A stretch of 64,000 nt of DNA from the NCBI GenBank assembly GCA_964404855.1, contig CAYOLO010000001.1, positions 443,009 to 507,008 on the forward strand, read 5' to 3'. Below the pieces are notes generated by a model that saw only the letters and a program-made list of their open reading frames with translations, made no database searches and was not told the DNA's origin. This DNA comes from an uncultured Gammaproteobacteria bacterium (GTDB lineage Bacteria > Patescibacteriota > Microgenomatia > CAYQLK01). The position numbers and the translations under genes were made by a program. This document shows positions 19,956-34,177 of the stretch, in pieces (position 1 is the first letter of the stretch; each line of letters begins with the position of its first letter).

Positions 19956-20039
19956 GCCGGGGTGGCGGAATTGGTAGACGCGCACGTCTCAAACACGTGT
20001 GAAAGCAATTTCATGTGGGTTCAAGTCCCACTCCCGGCA
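19956..20039 (+). tRNA. tRNA-Leu (anticodon CAA), class II with long variable arm
   Basis: GCCGGGG acceptor stem, D-loop AATTGGTAG, anticodon loop CTCAAAC, long variable arm, T-arm GTGGG-TTCAAGT-CCCAC. CCA is not encoded. Confidence 0.85.
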
Positions 20040-20222
20040 CATCGTTGAAATGAGCTTGATAGTAGGGAGTTTAGACGAAGTCCATTTTTCCTAAATTGGG
20101 AGCAATAAATTATTTAGTTCAAGTTTTTTTATTTCTATTTATCACAATCGTATCGACAGCTATAGGCTATTGTAGTAGTATTTGTGGCTAGCACTTTAAG
20201 CAAAGGAAGGTAGAAACTACAA

Positions 20223-21056
20223 ATGCCTGTACTTCTAGACGAAGGCAAAGACAGGATCATTGTCGCGCTTGATACTCAAAAGGTCCCCGAAGTTTCCCGT
20301 TTGGTTCAACTGCTTGCGCCCCATGTGGGGATGTTCAAGGCAGGCTTCGAGTTGACCAACGCGGTTGGAACCGCAAGGGCTCTACGGGCGATCAAGGTAA
20401 ACGGCGGGAAGGATTTCGCGGATGTCAAATTCCACGATATTCCCCCAACCGTTCTCAAGGCTGTTCAGGCAGTGGCGGGCTTCGGTCCTCATTTTCTGAA
20501 CATGCATATTCAGTCAGGTGATGCGGCGATGCAGGGTGCGGTTGCTCAAAAGGGCAACAGCTTACTGCTTGGCGTGTCAATTCTGACCTCTCTCGACCCT
20601 CAAGAGGTTCTTGAGATGTTTGTCGAGCCGTTTATTGCAATGACAGGACACGACTACGAGTACGGTCAGGCCATGGCAACAGACAGCGAAGACGCGGAAC
20701 TCGCCAAGCACGCTGTAGAGTTGCGTACTGAGTACATGAACAGGTTGGTTTTGGGCCTTGCTGAGAAAGCAGCCCGAAACGGTCTCGACGGCCTCATCTG
20801 TTCACCGCTCGAGCTCAGGTATCTCAAAGAACACGGCTCGGAAGCAGTGCATAACCTTATCAAGGTTGTGCCTGGTATCCGCATGCCGAATTCAGACGCT
20901 GACGACCAACAAAGGGTGGGAACGCCCTACCAGACAATTATTGACGGGGCAGACTACCTTGTGGTCGGGAGACCGATTCTCACTGCAGCAGATCCCGTTG
21001 CAGCTGCTCAAGCGATTGCGGCAGAGATTGACCGCGCGCTTGACGACATGGACTGA
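20223..21056 (+). CDS. pyrF: orotidine 5'-phosphate decarboxylase (long/type 2 form)
   Basis: IVALD and K..FHDIP motifs. GC ~55% island. Confidence 0.85.
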   Translation: MPVLLDEGKDRIIVALDTQKVPEVSRLVQLLAPHVGMFKAGFELTNAVGTARALRAIKVNGGKDFADVKFHDIPPTVLKAVQAVAGFGPHFLNMHIQSGDAAMQGAVAQKGNSLLLGVSILTSLDPQEVLEMFVEPFIAMTGHDYEYGQAMATDSEDAELAKHAVELRTEYMNRLVLGLAEKAARNGLDGLICSPLELRYLKEHGSEAVHNLIKVVPGIRMPNSDADDQQRVGTPYQTIIDGADYLVVGRPILTAADPVAAAQAIAAEIDRALDDMD

Positions 21057-21084
21057 AACAAGGGAGGGCAAAGTAGGTACGACA

Positions 21085-21744
21085 ATGCCAAGCGAAGAGA
21101 GAGTTGTTCGCACGATTCTCGAAAAATCAGGTGGGCTAATGATTGGGGGACACTTCGTGTTGTCCGACCAAAAGCACACTGATCGATATGTCGAGAAGAC
21201 ACGATTTTTGCGCCGCGTCGACTATCTCCAGATTCTGGCAGATATGATTGCCAAGGCGTACAGCAAAAAGAACATCGAAGTCGTGATTGCTCCCGCGGTC
21301 GGAGGTATCGGACTGGCAGCAATTGTTGCTTTTAGGATGATGCAGGCTGGTTATGGAGCAGCGGCAGAAATCCAATGGGGGTACGCTGAGCCTGTTCGCG
21401 ATAAGGACGGCGAGCTTATCCTCTACGAACTAAAGCGCGGATTCGCGCAGATGGTCGAAGGCAAAAGAGTACTGGTGGTTGAAGATGTAATCACCACAGG
21501 CAGGTCTGCTGCTCTGGTGGTCAAGGCAGTTCGAGCCAACGACGGCAACGTCGTAGGTTTGAGTGCAATCATCAACCGTGGAAGAGTAACGTCGCTTGAC
21601 GTTGGTCATCCGGGGTATTTCAAGCCTCTTCTGACCATCGACCTTCCGGTTTTTGAGCCTCAAAATTGTGAACTCTGCAAGTTCAATATCCCTGTTAATC
21701 AGGAGTTTGGACACGGAAGAGAGTTCATGCTCGGCAGGATTTAA
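21085..21744 (+). CDS. pyrE: orotate phosphoribosyltransferase
   Basis: PRTase PRPP-binding motif VLVVEDVITTGRS. Start placed at MPSEER; the longer ORF overlaps pyrF out of frame. Confidence 0.8.
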   Translation: MPSEERVVRTILEKSGGLMIGGHFVLSDQKHTDRYVEKTRFLRRVDYLQILADMIAKAYSKKNIEVVIAPAVGGIGLAAIVAFRMMQAGYGAAAEIQWGYAEPVRDKDGELILYELKRGFAQMVEGKRVLVVEDVITTGRSAALVVKAVRANDGNVVGLSAIINRGRVTSLDVGHPGYFKPLLTIDLPVFEPQNCELCKFNIPVNQEFGHGREFMLGRI

Positions 21745-21777
21745 GACCAAACAAGGTAAAAGGAGGAATTTACGAAA

Positions 21778-22062
21778 ATGGCTCAACCAAGCAGAAAAAT
21801 CGGACGAGCCACATGTGTGAGTTGCGGGTTTACTGACCTGCACTCCTTCTTTCAGCTACTACGTGGTGAGGACCCAAAATGTCCTGACTGCAAATCAACC
21901 AACGTGGCTGAAGGTGAGCCTGATCTTAGGTGTACTGGCTGTGGGCAAACTACTGTTCCGCGCAGACACCGACTGAACATGGCAGTTGCGCCTCTACGGT
22001 GCGTGGGTTGTGGATCGGATTCGTTTGAGGCTGTGCCAAAAGTGCCAGCGGGATACATTTAA
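21778..22062 (+). CDS. zinc-ribbon (multi CxxC) hypothetical protein
   Basis: Three CxxC pairs (CVSCG, CPDC, CTGCG, CVGCG). GC-rich, in the same island as pyrFE. Confidence 0.5.
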   Translation: MAQPSRKIGRATCVSCGFTDLHSFFQLLRGEDPKCPDCKSTNVAEGEPDLRCTGCGQTTVPRRHRLNMAVAPLRCVGCGSDSFEAVPKVPAGYI

Positions 22063-28623: not shown

Positions 28624-29477
28624 GACTTTTTAAGCGAAAATCTACTAAAATCAAAAATCCAATGGCGGTTAGGACCAGTAAGGTGGGGGTTGCGGAAAAA
28701 CTTGTGATTTCAAAAAGACAGATTTTGGTCTTTTTTTCAATCTTAATGACCGGCGGTTTGACTGTGTCTTTATTGTCCGAAGGTAGAAGTTTGTATTTGC
28801 TTTCACTGCTTTTGGCTATTGCAGCAGGGCTTGTGACTGTTTGGGTTTTAAGAAAAGATTTGGCGGGTATTAAGTATTTTGTATTGCCGATTTTGCCTTT
28901 TTTCTTTACTTTTGCAATGGCGTTATTTTTTCAACTACTGCCGGAGAGGTGGTTAACGCGTTTACCATTTATGGCCGTGTATGGGGTTTCGATTTATTTA
29001 ATATTTCTTAATCAGAATGTTTACAATATTGCAGCAATTAGAACAATTGCACTACTTAGGGCAGCACACTCTGTGGGCTTACTGTTTACGCTTATATCGG
29101 TTTTTATTATCAGTAATGTCACATTCTCTCTTAGGTTTAATTTTGTGATTCTGACAGTGATTCTGACGGTTATTTGTGGGCTGATGATTTTTCAGACTCT
29201 TTGGTCTTTTGAATTGGAGGATTTGTTAACCAAAAGATTACTTAAGATGACTTTGGTACTTGGGTTAATAGTTGGACAGGTAGTACTAACTCTTTCTTTT
29301 TGGCCAGCGGAGCCGACTGTCTCTGCGATTGTGGTGACTACCGCTGTTTATGTTTTATTAGGACTAAGTCAAGCATATTATGCTGACAGGTTGTTTAGGA
29401 GAACGGCGATTGAATATATTTCGCTTGGTGTGGGAGTATTTTTGTTATTGTTTTTGACGACAAGTTGGATAGAATAG
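28620..29477 (+). CDS. hypothetical polytopic membrane protein
   Basis: About 8 predicted TM segments. Start overlaps the ruvC stop (ATGA). Confidence 0.5.
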   Translation: MRLFKRKSTKIKNPMAVRTSKVGVAEKLVISKRQILVFFSILMTGGLTVSLLSEGRSLYLLSLLLAIAAGLVTVWVLRKDLAGIKYFVLPILPFFFTFAMALFFQLLPERWLTRLPFMAVYGVSIYLIFLNQNVYNIAAIRTIALLRAAHSVGLLFTLISVFIISNVTFSLRFNFVILTVILTVICGLMIFQTLWSFELEDLLTKRLLKMTLVLGLIVGQVVLTLSFWPAEPTVSAIVVTTAVYVLLGLSQAYYADRLFRRTAIEYISLGVGVFLLLFLTTSWIE

Positions 29478-29701
29478 GGGACAAAATTTAGCTACGAATT
29501 GAAGCTATAATACGGTATCAGTTATTACCCACTAATTAAACCTATAGTATATTAAGTAATAATCAATAAAAAAGGAAAGAAAGATTAGTAAATTATTTAA
29601 TAAATATGGTAACAAAAGCCAAAAGATAAAAGTAAATAGAGGAGTAATTAAAAAAGAGAAATTAGCTTCGAGAATAGAGAAATGTGATATAGTTTGATAC
29701 A

Positions 29702-29733
29702 GTGTGAAAACTCGTGAAAATCGTCGTGAAAAC
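29702..29733. promoter_or_regulatory. three direct repeats of CGTGAAAA at 10-12 bp spacing
   Basis: Direct observation: gtgtgaaaactcgtgaaaatcgtcgtgaaaac, in an AT-rich spacer. Confidence 0.5.
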
Positions 29734-29771
29734 TTAATACCAGTCAAGGGCGGGGAGTGATAGTCATAAAA

Positions 29772-29780
29772 TGTGGATAA
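29772..29780 (-). promoter_or_regulatory. perfect DnaA-box 9-mer (TTATCCACA on minus strand)
   Basis: tgtggataa on the plus strand. Only this one perfect copy was seen in the region. Confidence 0.4.
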
Positions 29781-30075
29781 CTTAGTTTTAGTCTCATCTT
29801 TTGAGTAGCGTTAGCTAATAAGTTAGTAATGCGCACCACTCTTTTAGCTTTGAATATTTGAGAATAGCTTATTGTAATAGTCTAAATTGCGACGTTAATA
29901 CTTCATATTATATTCAGTAATATTTCATATTATAGGGTCGTTTTGGGCATAAATAGAGTGAGCGTTTTTGGGGCGGTGTAGGGCTAAATTTAGTGATCAC
30001 TTAGTAAGTGAATAGCACAAATATAGTTAACTAAATACCTAAGATAATCAGTACACCCCACTAAGGTCTAGAGCA

Positions 30076-30100
30076 GAAAAATGATATGTCGTACAATATA
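30076..30100. repeat. copy 1 of a 24-nt element AAAAATGATAYGTCGYACAATAT
   Basis: 22/24 identity with copy 2 at 30777-30803. A degenerate third echo follows (tgcgacgtaaaatat). Confidence 0.8.
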
Positions 30101-30472
30101 ACTTTTGCGACGTAAAATATAAAAATGGAGTGGGGTTGTAAGGACAAAAAATATAAGAATTAGTAAATTATTAAAAAATATTTTTTTAAAAATAATGATC
30201 TAGTTTGATTTAACCCCCTATGGATGGGTCTAATTATTTGATTGATTTGATATGGTTTGTTATCTTAACCCCATTTTGGTGAATTTTTGCGGTATATATG
30301 CGGTTATCGGCTATAAATATTAAATATTAATGATAGATTACCCTACCCAACTAATAAAAAGCCGTTTTAGGGCCAATTAGAGGGTTTTAGCCTCAATATA
30401 TCGATATTTTATGGCTAAAGTGGTATAAGTGACATTTAGATTAAGTGAACATTAAATATTTGGAGGCAGTTC

Positions 30473-30694
30473 TTGTTTATCTTAAGAATCTTTTCAGATG
30501 TCAAAGGTTTTCTGACAAGACTATCCTTAATAAGATTGGTGGTTTTGTTGGGGCTGACTTTTTCAGTCTTTGTGAGCTTAGTGGTTTGGGTCTGGACTCA
30601 AGATCCGACTTGGGCATACGTAACACTGGTACTTTTGGCTTTTGCATGGGCGGCTTTTGGTACCTCTGTTGCGCAGATTTCTCGGACCGATTGA
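30473..30694 (+). CDS. possible small 2-TM membrane protein (73 aa)
   Basis: Hydrophobic ORF lying between the two 24-nt repeat copies. No SD. Weak. Confidence 0.3.
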   Translation: MFILRIFSDVKGFLTRLSLIRLVVLLGLTFSVFVSLVVWVWTQDPTWAYVTLVLLAFAWAAFGTSVAQISRTD

Positions 30695-30776
30695 GTCCTT
30701 TAATTGTTTCTCGCCGGTTTTTCAATCCTTACTCATTAGTACCTAATGAATTGGGGTTTGGACAACCGGCTTTTTC

Positions 30777-30803
30777 TTAAAAATGATACGTCGCACAATA
30801 TGT
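30777..30803. repeat. copy 2 of the 24-nt element, ~15 nt upstream of the recombinase start codon
   Basis: Sequence is aaaaatgatacgtcgcacaatatg. Contains a TACAAT-like hexamer and a CACA-ATAT-GTG partial palindrome. Confidence 0.8.
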
Positions 30804-30817
30804 GATAGAGTGGTTAT

Positions 30818-31792
30818 ATGGACACTGTTCAAAAACCATTGAAGGAAAAATCTGATAAGTTTGGAAAAGAGATTAAGGAATTTTTGGAGTATTTGGAAGT
30901 TGAGCGTAATGTCTCTCCCCTCACCCTACGAGATTATAAACATTATTTGGAAGTTTTTGCTAATTGGGCAAATGAAAATAATATTAGTGAGATTGAGAGT
31001 GTTGATATTAAGCAGATAAGGTCTTTTCGCTTGTTTTTGTCGAGAAAGTTGACACAGGATGGTGAGCCAATCAAAAAAATAACCCAGAATTACTACGTAA
31101 TCGCGCTGCGAGCCATGCTTAGGTTCTTGATTAAGAATGATAGGCAGGTTATTTCGCCCGATAAGATTGAGCTTGGTAAACAAGAAGGTAGGCAAGTTAA
31201 GTTCTTGACTCAAGATCACTTAAATCGATTACTGAACAGTCCGAATGTGAACGACTTAAGTGGGCTACGTGATAAAGCTATTTTGGAAATGCTATTTTCG
31301 ACAGGTTTACGAGTTTCGGAGATGGTTAGCTTGGATCGTGATTCGATTGATCTTAACTCTGGAGAATTTGGTGTTATGGGTAAAGGAAGAAGAGTTCGGG
31401 TGGTGTTTTTGTCGCCCGATTCAGCTACTTGGGTGGCAAGGTATCTTAATGCTCGTGATGATCATTATGAGCCGTTATTTGTAAGATATAAAGGTAAAAA
31501 ATCTATTGTGGATGACGATGAAAGTCATAGATTAACTTCAAGAAGTATTCAGAGAATTGTTGAGGGTTATGTAAAAAAAGCACAATTGCCAATTAAAGCT
31601 ACGCCACACACCTTAAGACATTCATTTGCAACTGATTTACTTAATAATGGGGCTGATATCAGAAGTGTTCAGGAGATGTTGGGACACAAAAATATTGCCA
31701 CAACTCAGATCTATACTCATGTGACGAATAGACAACTAAGAGAGGTTCATCAGGCTTTTCATGGTCGTAAAAAGGATAAATTAGATGAGTAA
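30818..31792 (+). CDS. tyrosine site-specific recombinase, XerC/XerD family
   Basis: N-terminal SAM-like core-binding domain (FLEYLEVERNVSPLTLRDYKHYL). C-terminal catalytic R...HTLRHSFAT...GHKNIATTQIYTH with the Tyr nucleophile. Confidence 0.85.
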   Translation: MDTVQKPLKEKSDKFGKEIKEFLEYLEVERNVSPLTLRDYKHYLEVFANWANENNISEIESVDIKQIRSFRLFLSRKLTQDGEPIKKITQNYYVIALRAMLRFLIKNDRQVISPDKIELGKQEGRQVKFLTQDHLNRLLNSPNVNDLSGLRDKAILEMLFSTGLRVSEMVSLDRDSIDLNSGEFGVMGKGRRVRVVFLSPDSATWVARYLNARDDHYEPLFVRYKGKKSIVDDDESHRLTSRSIQRIVEGYVKKAQLPIKATPHTLRHSFATDLLNNGADIRSVQEMLGHKNIATTQIYTHVTNRQLREVHQAFHGRKKDKLDE

Positions 31793-33107: not shown

Positions 33108-33130
33108 AAGGTAATTGTAGCAAATTGAGG

Positions 33131-33167
33131 TAAAAAAAAGCCTCCGCTGCGGTTAAGCAACGAAGGC
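33131..33167 (-). terminator. intrinsic terminator (minus strand) ending the GC-rich ncRNA candidate
   Basis: On the minus strand: 12-bp stem agccttcgttgc-ttaacc-gcagcggaggct followed by TTTTTTTT. Confidence 0.7.
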
Positions 33168-33922
33168 TGTAATTGGTTGGCAGGGCCGCAATCACGTGTA
33201 GTGACAACGGCCCAAGTGGCGGGGTAGTATTTTCCGATTGACCGGCGGTGCTCGCAATTGAGCCGTGCCCATCAAACGGGGTTCACACTCCCCTAGGTTT
33301 TGCCTCCATAGCTTGGAGGTGGCTGCCCTACTTTTACGTCGGGGCGGACGGGCGGCCTAAAATGCGGCGGCCGATTGTCGTGACGAGACTGTGGCCTCGG
33401 CACGGGCCAGCCTAATTCGCGGGTGGCCTTCACTAGTGCCAGTTCGGCACAGCAAAACTTCGGGGAGCGCGAGCTGGTTGCCCGCGCTCCTTGCGGTCTC
33501 GGAAAACCCCCGAGACAAGGCAAAAAAAAGGACAGGCATGGCTAAGCTTGGGGTTTGATTTACAATGTGGGTACCGGATTCTCATGCGCTGAGATTCAGG
33601 CCTGAACACAGTGCTCGTCTTACCTTTTAGCAGGAAGAGGCCTCATTTCTCGTTAGTTCCCCCAGAGGGCAGAGGGGTCGCTGCAGAGTTAATAAGGTCG
33701 GCAACTTGCTTTTTCTCCCTTGTCGTGACCATGGCGCATCCTGCCCCGTTCCCCTTTTCCCCATTATGGGTAGGTGGTTCTTAGGCACGAAAGCCTTCGA
33801 ACTCCAGAGGGAGACGCTTCGAAGCGTTTAAGCTAAAACGCTACCAAGTGTTTCCCTCTAGATTGGGACAAAATGTCACTGTCGTAATATTTTTTATATG
33901 TGCGCAGTTAGTAAATAACTGT
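33131..33922 (-). ncRNA. candidate large structured ncRNA (~790 nt, GC ~58%, no ORF), class unassigned
   Basis: Lies between a perfect consensus promoter and an intrinsic terminator. Strong local GC excess in an AT-rich genome, as for rRNA/tRNA. Many stable hairpins (e.g. cctccaagctatggagg, gtctcgg-N7-ccgagac). The small ORFs in the region are GC artefacts. Confidence 0.55.
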
Positions 33923-33929
33923 GGAGAAC

Positions 33930-33958
33930 ATTATACACATTATTGGTCAATATGTCAA
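33930..33958 (-). promoter_or_regulatory. consensus sigma70 promoter TTGACA-N17-TATAAT (minus strand)
   Basis: Plus strand attata (33930-33935) ... tgtcaa (33953-33958), which is TTGACAtattgaccaataatgtgTATAAT on the minus strand. Confidence 0.75.
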
Positions 33959-34023
33959 GTACTATAGGTTCTCGCTTTAGTTATTCGAAAAAGGCTTGGG
34001 TCCCCCACTTTTTCTCTAACTAA

Positions 34024-34056
34024 AAGCTACAAGCCTGCGTTTTGGGAAACCCAAAA
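34024..34056. repeat. copy of AGCTAC-N-CCTGCG + hairpin motif (gttttggg-aaa-cccaaaac)
   Basis: agctacaagcctgcgttttgggaaacccaaaac. Related copies at 2426-2470, 2587-2631 and 34064-34126. Confidence 0.6.
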
Positions 34057-34177
34057 CTAGAGACAGTTTGCGCTACGTCCTGCGCAGAGAATTAATTAAA
34101 TAAGTTAATTCTCTCGTTGAGACAGGAGGCCTGATGCTAGGGGCTAATTATTTTGGTCATCAAGGAATATTTAACGG

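Follow-up and report, generated by a model that had tools for sequence, protein, structure and literature searches.

Gene-site modules have been considered a possible hallmark of single-recombinase Xer systems (PMC5357621). In the archaea, some genomes carry such a xerA/dif module, the dif site often does not lie opposite the origin, and XerA is FtsK-independent (PMC5357621). The Patescibacteria are a very large, mostly uncultured group with tiny genomes whose chromosome biology is almost unknown, and no description of Xer/dif in this phylum was found in the searchable literature. The present analysis concerns a 64-kb stretch of DNA from a Microgenomates-type member of the phylum (contig CAYOLO010000001.1, positions 443,009 to 507,008; hereafter the window) and, within it, xer, a gene for a XerC/XerD-family tyrosine recombinase, together with a 28-bp palindrome located upstream of it. 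This palindrome is probably a dif-like Xer site that is conserved across the Patescibacteria, the phylum's version of dif, as judged by comparison of xer loci and by the junctions of prophages. An original prediction, made from the letters of the window, had proposed a dif-like site in the form of a repeated 24-mer flanking a mobile mini-cassette; its dif-like reading named the right kind of feature but misjudged how its parts are arranged, and the repeat is real, yet does not form paired ends around a mobile cassette.

A conserved 28-bp palindrome upstream of xer

The palindrome (Table 1) consists of a left arm (30086-30096), a 6-bp spacer (30097-30102), and a right arm (30103-30113); read as inverted repeats, the arms are identical at 8 of 11 positions. 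Scored with a position weight matrix derived from 52 distant sites, it reaches 44.7 of a maximum of 47.2, and a scan of the window with this matrix at a threshold of 12 returns only this site and its own reverse complement, with 0 matches in 5 shuffled sequences. The site agrees with a generic bacterial dif consensus at 21 of 28 positions (10/11 in the left arm, 7/11 in the right arm); 6 of the roughly 64,000 plus-strand 28-mers in the window reach a score of 21 against this consensus, and none on either strand reaches 22.

Among genus-level relatives, the 28-bp site is invariant. For more distant comparisons, 80 xer loci were taken from species-representative genomes with Xer 50-60% identical. 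The site is present, once each, in 52 of these 80 Patescibacteria loci, positioned 0.06-3.6 kb upstream of xer and, in 49 of the 52, in the same orientation as the gene; no locus among the 80 has more than one full site. The 10-mer GTCGYACAAT recurs in the distant loci in two forms, as part of a full palindrome and as a lone left arm. The full form is GTCGYACAA-N6-TTTTRCGAC or, when the conserved flanks are included, A-Y-GTCGYACAA / T-N4-C / TTTTRCGAC-R-T, and the 11-6-11 geometry is common to all 52 sites. Position 5 of the arms varies independently on the two sides (C/T 44/12 on the left, G/A 28/28 on the right), and C+A combinations are common. Such independent variation, with mismatched C+A, indicates that the constraint is on two protein half-sites in DNA and not on an RNA stem.

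Other identities for the motif were considered. An RNA hairpin or the start of a non-coding RNA at this position is ruled out by the independent variation of the arms and the frequent C+A pairs, and an Rfam search of 29400-30900 at E up to 5 gave no match. A sigma-54 promoter, a LexA box, parS, and a DnaA box were rejected, since neither spacing nor sequence fits; a literature search on LexA gave nothing relevant to the motif. Collections of cultured phages and plasmids contain no meaningful match to the 28-bp site, and a full-text literature search for the motif string returned primers and unrelated matches only. A KOPS/SRS-like (FtsK/SpoIIIE-orienting) reading of the G-rich motif GGAGAAGTGG was also set aside, as this motif points away from the site. 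(It should be noted that a purine-rich motif lies 25-35 nt 3' of the right arm, GGAGTGGGG at 30126-30134, and that GGGAGAAGTGG or CAGGGGTGG is seen at a similar distance in many of the 80 distant loci, L017-L096, and in viral loci; in the Microgenomates, a long T-rich tract follows the purine-rich motif.)

The product of xer, a 324-aa protein, matches Pfam Phage_integrase (1.4e-43) and a SAM-like N-domain. In the NCBIfam comparison it scores 252.9 bits with XerC and 245.8 bits with XerD, both below the equivalog cut-offs, 209.9 bits with XerA (cut-off 220), and 131.5 bits with XerS (cut-off 267); no XerH model is matched. The nearest solved structure is that of E. coli XerD (1a0p, 5.6e-41). 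Residues R165, K189, H264, R267, H290, and Y299 are invariant in 16 homologues, and, as predicted from its sequence, Xer is a competent recombinase with all six catalytic residues, equidistant from XerC and XerD. A tblastn search found no Xer paralogue within the window. The presence of near-identical arms together with one gene suggests a single-recombinase system.

Recombination at sites of this type is seen in the Saccharibacteria. A scan of viral contigs with the site pattern gave at least 120 matches; if the size of the database is roughly estimated, about 100 would be expected by chance. The spacers, however, depart strongly from randomness, most of the matches having T at position 10, and chance was rejected as their source. 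At least 23 of the matches lie in filamentous-phage-like contigs with Zot and Rep G2P genes, in none of which was a match to the window's Xer found, and the gene lists of the prophages contain no integrase domain. In four contigs (L149, L178, L211, L214), two direct sites lie 5.3-5.9 kb apart, with phage genes between them and host genes, from Saccharibacteria, outside. Each pair combines a full site with a hybrid one, in which the left arm and spacer are unchanged and the right arm is degenerate. Five further contigs encode an identical flanking host protein and are therefore from very close relatives. The site is empty in two of them (L338, L339), and three different integrase-less filamentous prophages of 5.3-6 kb occupy exactly that position in the others (L337, L340, L341), each in the order hybrid site, prophage, full site. 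This insertion point, which has a DUF3048 gene on one side and the murG/ftsW cluster on the other, has no linkage to xer. Where it is empty, the surrounding genes point towards each other and the GC skew switches sign, from +0.04 to −0.17. Empty and occupied alleles with full and hybrid junctions are the textbook signature of Xer-exploiting elements, and for this reason the site is read as a dif-type Xer target. Crossover within the site is demonstrated by these homologous Saccharibacteria sites only. From their gene content and junctions, the prophages look like Xer-exploiting inoviruses of the Patescibacteria; prophages have been reported in oral TM7, with no recombinase mentioned (PMC7739484).

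The direct repeat, the lone arm, and the DNA between the copies

The repeat on which the original prediction was built consists of a 23-nt unit, AAAAATGATAYGTCGYACAATAT, whose boundaries are 1-2 nt tighter than first given and whose two copies are identical at 21 of 23 bases. With up to 3 mismatches allowed, the window contains these 2 matches, compared with 0 expected from 100 shuffles, and the similarity between the copies stops at the final base of the 23-mer. It had been noticed correctly that copy 2 is positioned just upstream of the ATG of a Xer-family gene (its 3' end is 16 nt away) and that the copies bracket a small hydrophobic open reading frame (ORF) of 73 aa. In a 1.3-kb alignment of six relatives, copy 1 and the next 14 nt form an invariant block, ATGATATGTCGTACAATATAACTTTTGCGACGT, and the core of copy 2, GTCGCACAAT, is also kept. 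The supposed degenerate third echo of the repeat (30103-30113, TTTTGCGACGT), however, does not run in the same direction as the repeat: it pairs, as an inverted repeat, with the 3' half of copy 1. Thus, while a dif-like Xer site by a single Xer-family gene had been foreseen, the repeated 24-mer is not itself that site, because the core is the palindrome, to which copy 1 contributes no more than its 3' 14 nt and which is completed by the "echo".

Copy 2 has no inverted partner and is not scored as a full site by the matrix scan at a threshold of 12. Similar lone arms, on the plus strand and no more than 350 nt upstream of xer, are found in 24 of 67 distant loci; relative to a background of 0.004 per 350 nt, this is an enrichment of about 90-fold. 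In the distant loci, the lone arm abuts a TTGAC −35-like box, lying upstream of the −35. In the window, a promoter-like sequence, TGGACA-17-AATGAT (30759-30787), is located upstream of the copy 2 arm, and in this genus the arm falls between the −10-like AATGAT, which is not above shuffle expectation, and the ribosome-binding site. A promoter scan gave 9 matches, with 9.0 expected from shuffles. From the placement of the arm, we infer that Xer may bind at copy 2 and regulate its own gene.

A mechanism can be proposed in which one Xer monomer would bind each of the near-identical arms, two 28-bp sites would synapse, and strands would be exchanged across the 6-bp spacer, resolving chromosome dimers. 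Copy 1 would then be the left arm of the full site plus its A/T-rich flank, and copy 2 a solitary left arm over the xer promoter and 5' leader, where the most likely role of Xer binding would be to tune its own transcription. For this genome, binding and cutting by Xer at the site, the resolution of dimers, and the autoregulatory use of the lone arm are predictions drawn from sequence comparison.

Between the two copies lie the small gene, its expression signals and terminator, and an upstream conserved block (Table 1); an A/T-rich stretch is also present within this 0.7-kb segment. The 73-aa protein is conserved in L011, L012, and L015, which have the motif WxWTQ(D/N) in common. Pfam gave no match to it, and only 3 protein clusters in 5.8 billion, all from this clade, correspond to it. 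In the expression signals, GGTATAAGT is invariant in all relatives, and TTGGAGG is present in the window, L002, and L012. The terminator has a folding energy of −27.7 kcal/mol (z = −5.2 compared with 200 shuffles); the ends of its stem, GCCGG...CCGGC, are conserved, and in L016 both sides of the stem have changed together, to GCCGA...TCGGC. The non-coding block at 30283-30436 is near-invariant where Xer is 86-97% identical and is probably regulatory. A structured RNA in this block was considered and rejected: the fold of the alignment is without covariation support (covariation term +0.96).

Two variants of the small gene were also observed. The gene is frameshifted in L016. In L001, a near-identical strain with an identical Xer, about 45 nt including the GGAGG are missing (L001 9650-9665 compared with 30430-30472 of the window); this deletion puts the −10 almost directly before the TTG start, which could reflect a leaderless mRNA or an assembly variant.

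Table 1. Coordinates of the features of the xer locus, numbered from the first letter of the window
Feature	Position	Strand	Remarks
28-bp dif-like core site, ATGTCGTACAA-TATAAC-TTTTGCGACGT	30086..30113	+	11-6-11, imperfect palindrome
Direct repeat copy 1, AAAAATGATATGTCGTACAATAT	30077..30099	+	A/T-rich flank, left arm, and first 3 spacer nt
Direct repeat copy 2, AAAAATGATACGTCGCACAATAT	30779..30801	+	Conserved in relatives
Lone left-arm half-site, ACGTCGCACAA	30788..30798	+	19 nt upstream of xer ATG; no right arm
xer, 324-aa XerC/XerD-family tyrosine recombinase	30818..31792	+	Pfam PF00589, PF02899
Conserved non-coding block (TTGCGGTATATATGCGGTTA ... GATTACCCTACCC ... TTTTAGCCTC...)	30283..30436	+	Upstream of small gene
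Expression signals of small gene: extended −10 TGGTATAAG (30421-30429), ribosome-binding site GGAGG (30462-30466)	30421..30466	+	
Small gene, 73-aa protein with two hydrophobic stretches, TTG start	30473..30694	+	Conserved in relatives
Long hairpin followed by T-tract, intrinsic terminator of small gene	30713..30778	+	Ends where copy 2 begins

Position in the replichore and competing explanations

Several observations weigh against the view that the palindrome is the dif of this lineage. No site is present within 4 kb in 28 of the 80 distant xer loci, and of the 29 metagenome matches with 4 kb or more of downstream flank, 18 lack a nearby xer; the latter indicates that the linkage of site and xer is lineage-specific. 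The GC skew of the window ranges from +0.08 to +0.37 and remains positive over the roughly 30 kb to either side of the site. It stays at +0.12 to +0.19 even over the minus-strand genes at 11.8-17.7 kb and is about zero only over gyrA/gyrB. Three other Microgenomates loci (L346-L348, with 10-kb flanks) likewise have no lasting sign change, only a dip to about zero over the minus-strand gyrA/gyrB. Without such a switch, the site falls outside the terminus as defined by skew, which is the place of a classical FtsK-guided dif, and the terminal location that the original prediction had proposed to check by GC skew is not borne out. Furthermore, the uniqueness of the site applies to 64 kb of the genome, and a second site may exist elsewhere. 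As to autoregulation, the argument is the position of the lone arm, and this position varies from upstream of the −35 in distant relatives to the interval between the −10-like box and the ribosome-binding site here.

The xer-linked site of this lineage is therefore in mid-replichore, unlike the Saccharibacteria site. Measured over short flanks, the skew of xer-linked loci averages +0.15 on the left and +0.03 on the right, and metagenome loci drop in most cases; the drop is only suggestive, because minus-strand genes explain it in the xer-linked loci. The location leaves two options: the site may resolve dimers without lying at the terminus, for which archaeal XerA provides a precedent, or there may be a second site elsewhere.

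Some 300 nt upstream of the dif-like site, another conserved block without coding sequence (29694-29782) is likewise invariant where Xer is 86-97% identical. It contains GTGATATAGTTTGATAYAG, three GTGAAAA repeats, and GGGCGGGGAGTGA, and TGTGGATAA at 29771-29779 is exactly complementary to the DnaA-box consensus; the skew does not switch at this block, which is hence not an obvious origin.

If the second option held, the palindrome would be a genuine Xer-binding site, but dimers would be resolved at another copy at the true terminus, and the xer-adjacent site and arm would be regulatory or a secondary target. The lack of a skew switch at four Microgenomates loci, the Saccharibacteria site that is at a switch and not linked to xer, and the many metagenome matches that are not xer-linked all fit this arrangement. 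We nonetheless consider it unlikely, since no examined locus or window has two full sites, prophage junctions excepted, and the arms and spacer length are conserved near-perfectly over phylum-level distances, more than is usual for a simple operator. In addition, single-recombinase systems typically keep dif beside the gene, and archaeal XerA acts independently of FtsK with dif away from 180 degrees (PMC5357621). It is quite improbable that the repeat is no more than a duplicated promoter or operator, that is, a 23-mer bound by RNA polymerase or another regulator, used as a cis-regulatory element near 30100 and again for xer, with no recombination role here. Both copies are at promoter-like positions, as the original prediction had seen: copy 1 contains TACAAT, copy 2 comes just after TGGACA-17-AATGAT, a TATA(A/T)AT-like box lies directly 5' of the left arm in many distant loci, purine motifs of the GAGTGG type follow both copies, and the locus is not at the terminus. 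The shared core, however, is a recombinase arm with a full site in 11-6-11 recombinase geometry, and the same 28-bp palindrome is the crossover site for integrase-less prophages of the Saccharibacteria. A generic sigma-70 promoter motif, expected at many promoters, was rejected because there are only two copies in 64 kb, because the position relative to −35 and −10 differs between lineages (the arm of the distant loci being upstream of the −35 box and not at the −10), and because the promoter scan does not exceed its shuffles.

In the remaining explanation, the repeats would be a dif and a pseudo-dif produced when Xer integrated the 0.7-kb segment, giving a mini-cassette like those of integrative mobile elements exploiting Xer (IMEX) that Xer could still excise. 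The repeats are indeed direct, one belongs to a genuine Xer-type site, and real Xer-exploiting prophages use the site elsewhere in the phylum. In distant genera, moreover, 0-4 unrelated genes that differ between genera occupy the slot from the full site to xer (L346-L348, L017-L096), within an otherwise conserved synteny of TPR, YebC, RuvC, DUF5656 ... xer, gyrA, gyrB. These slot genes are ordinary, encoding an amino-acid kinase, a glycosyltransferase/zeta-toxin-like kinase fusion, a radical SAM protein, a nucleotidase, a pilin-like protein, and Trans_reg_C, and no mobile-element domain was found among them; the slot has a low probability of being a hotspot for insertion over long timescales. 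Around the window's own segment the evidence points the other way. All genus-level relatives, those with Xer 86-97% identical, retain the segment together with the two repeats and the small gene, and presence in all relatives is what the original prediction had named as counting against its mobile cassette; the small protein is found only in this clade and context. The order full site, cargo, lone left arm mirrors the real order of hybrid, prophage, full site, and it could not have been made by a single crossover at the present full site, which cannot leave a downstream left arm without a right arm. Finally, copy 2 shares with copy 1 only 3 of 6 spacer bases (TAT) and has no right arm. An excisable cassette is thus highly improbable. 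Judged by its distribution, the 702 bp between the copies has been inherited vertically, as ordinary DNA is, and does not behave as a mobile cassette on any visible timescale, and what looked like a mobile cassette in the window becomes part of the inherited chromosome.

Returning to the palindrome as the phylum's dif, a further step can be imagined for the Microgenomates, in which the sole dif has moved off the terminus into a mid-replichore xer-dif module, terminus-directed FtsK is not needed, the promoter arm sets the level of Xer, and the slot is a hotspot for Xer-dependent gene capture. The last element would explain why slot content differs from genus to genus. We regard this scheme as doubtful, though worth stating.

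Neighbouring features and relation to described Xer systems

The local gene order is YebC, RuvC, a DUF5656 membrane protein, a 1.34-kb stretch whose only clear gene is the 73-aa ORF, xer, and then minus-strand genes. The region 3' of xer holds a 143-aa ORF and a SIMPL-domain gene (minus strand), a GC-rich gap, and gyrA and gyrB (minus strand). This order is kept in relatives with Xer 86-97% identical, and its outline is kept at about 60% identity, the level of the Xer homologues from Curtissbacteria, Shapirobacteria, Levybacteria, and Woesebacteria (Microgenomates-type Patescibacteria).

Two other regions of the window are of note. The GC-rich, ORF-poor gap between the SIMPL gene and gyrA (33132-33958, minus strand) has a TTGACA / TGTGTATAAT promoter that is invariant in 5 relatives, followed by about 790 nt of conserved sequence ending in a hairpin and T8 terminator; an internal T-run near 33500 may split this sequence into two RNAs. 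The folding z-score over the 996-nt stretch 33125-34120, which contains it, is −8.9. No Rfam family was matched, even on short segments, and a likeness of the GC-rich candidate RNA at 33.1-33.9 kb to RNase P RNA was not confirmed by Rfam. The GC-rich gap is absent from distant Microgenomates, the distance from the SIMPL gene to gyrA being 47 nt in L346; it is a candidate for an undescribed structured RNA. The second region is an island of GC 0.50 in a genome of about 38% GC (20001-22000), just after tRNA-Leu(CAA) at 19956-20040. The island holds a 328-aa ORF (20758-21744), has no Rfam match, and may be horizontally acquired DNA beside a tRNA.

For the phylum as a whole, the consensus AYGTCGYACAA-N6-TTTTRCGACRT provides a marker for termini, for assembly checks, and for integrated filamentous prophages. 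The locus also offers a testable bacterial single-Xer module possibly acting away from the terminus.

Among the described systems, XerS/difSL of streptococci and lactococci and XerH/difH of Helicobacter and Campylobacter are alike in having one Xer-family recombinase with the site linked to its gene, and a near-palindromic site whose arms have A-tracts next to the spacer (PMC1914069, PMC5357621). The window protein, however, belongs to neither family: its XerS score is less than half the cut-off, and it is a XerC/D-like protein of 324 aa compared with about 355 aa. Whereas the sites of those systems span 31 bp and have an 11-bp centre, its site is one of 28 bp (11-6-11) and is placed 0.7 kb from the gene (0.06-3.6 kb in relatives), with intervening genes allowed. 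Furthermore, the Microgenomates site is off the GC-skew switch, and there is an extra lone arm at the xer promoter.

The canonical XerCD/dif system of E. coli and B. subtilis has the same 28-bp, 11-6-11 site, and its CGCAnAA left-arm core is seen in GGTGCGCATAA; B. subtilis dif is identical to the window site at 17 of 28 positions. The Saccharibacteria site resembles canonical dif further, being at a skew switch between converging genes and hijacked by filamentous phages. In the window, by contrast, both arms are XerC-type-like, the one recombinase gene seen is neither XerC nor XerD by curated cut-offs, and the site is in mid-replichore. Archaeal XerA/dif shares with the window a single recombinase and a 28-bp site, and the XerA score of the window protein is near the cut-off for that family, but it is below it, and the lineage is bacterial. 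As in the IMEX elements CTXphi, VGJphi, and TLCphi, the Saccharibacteria prophages lie between a full and a hybrid site with a degenerate outer arm, and their occupancy is polymorphic; the 0.7-kb segment of the window, in contrast, is without phage genes, is fixed in its clade, and has the wrong order of sites. Set beside these systems, the feature joins the Xer/dif family as a new member specific to the phylum, whose off-terminus position and lone arm at the xer promoter are worth testing.

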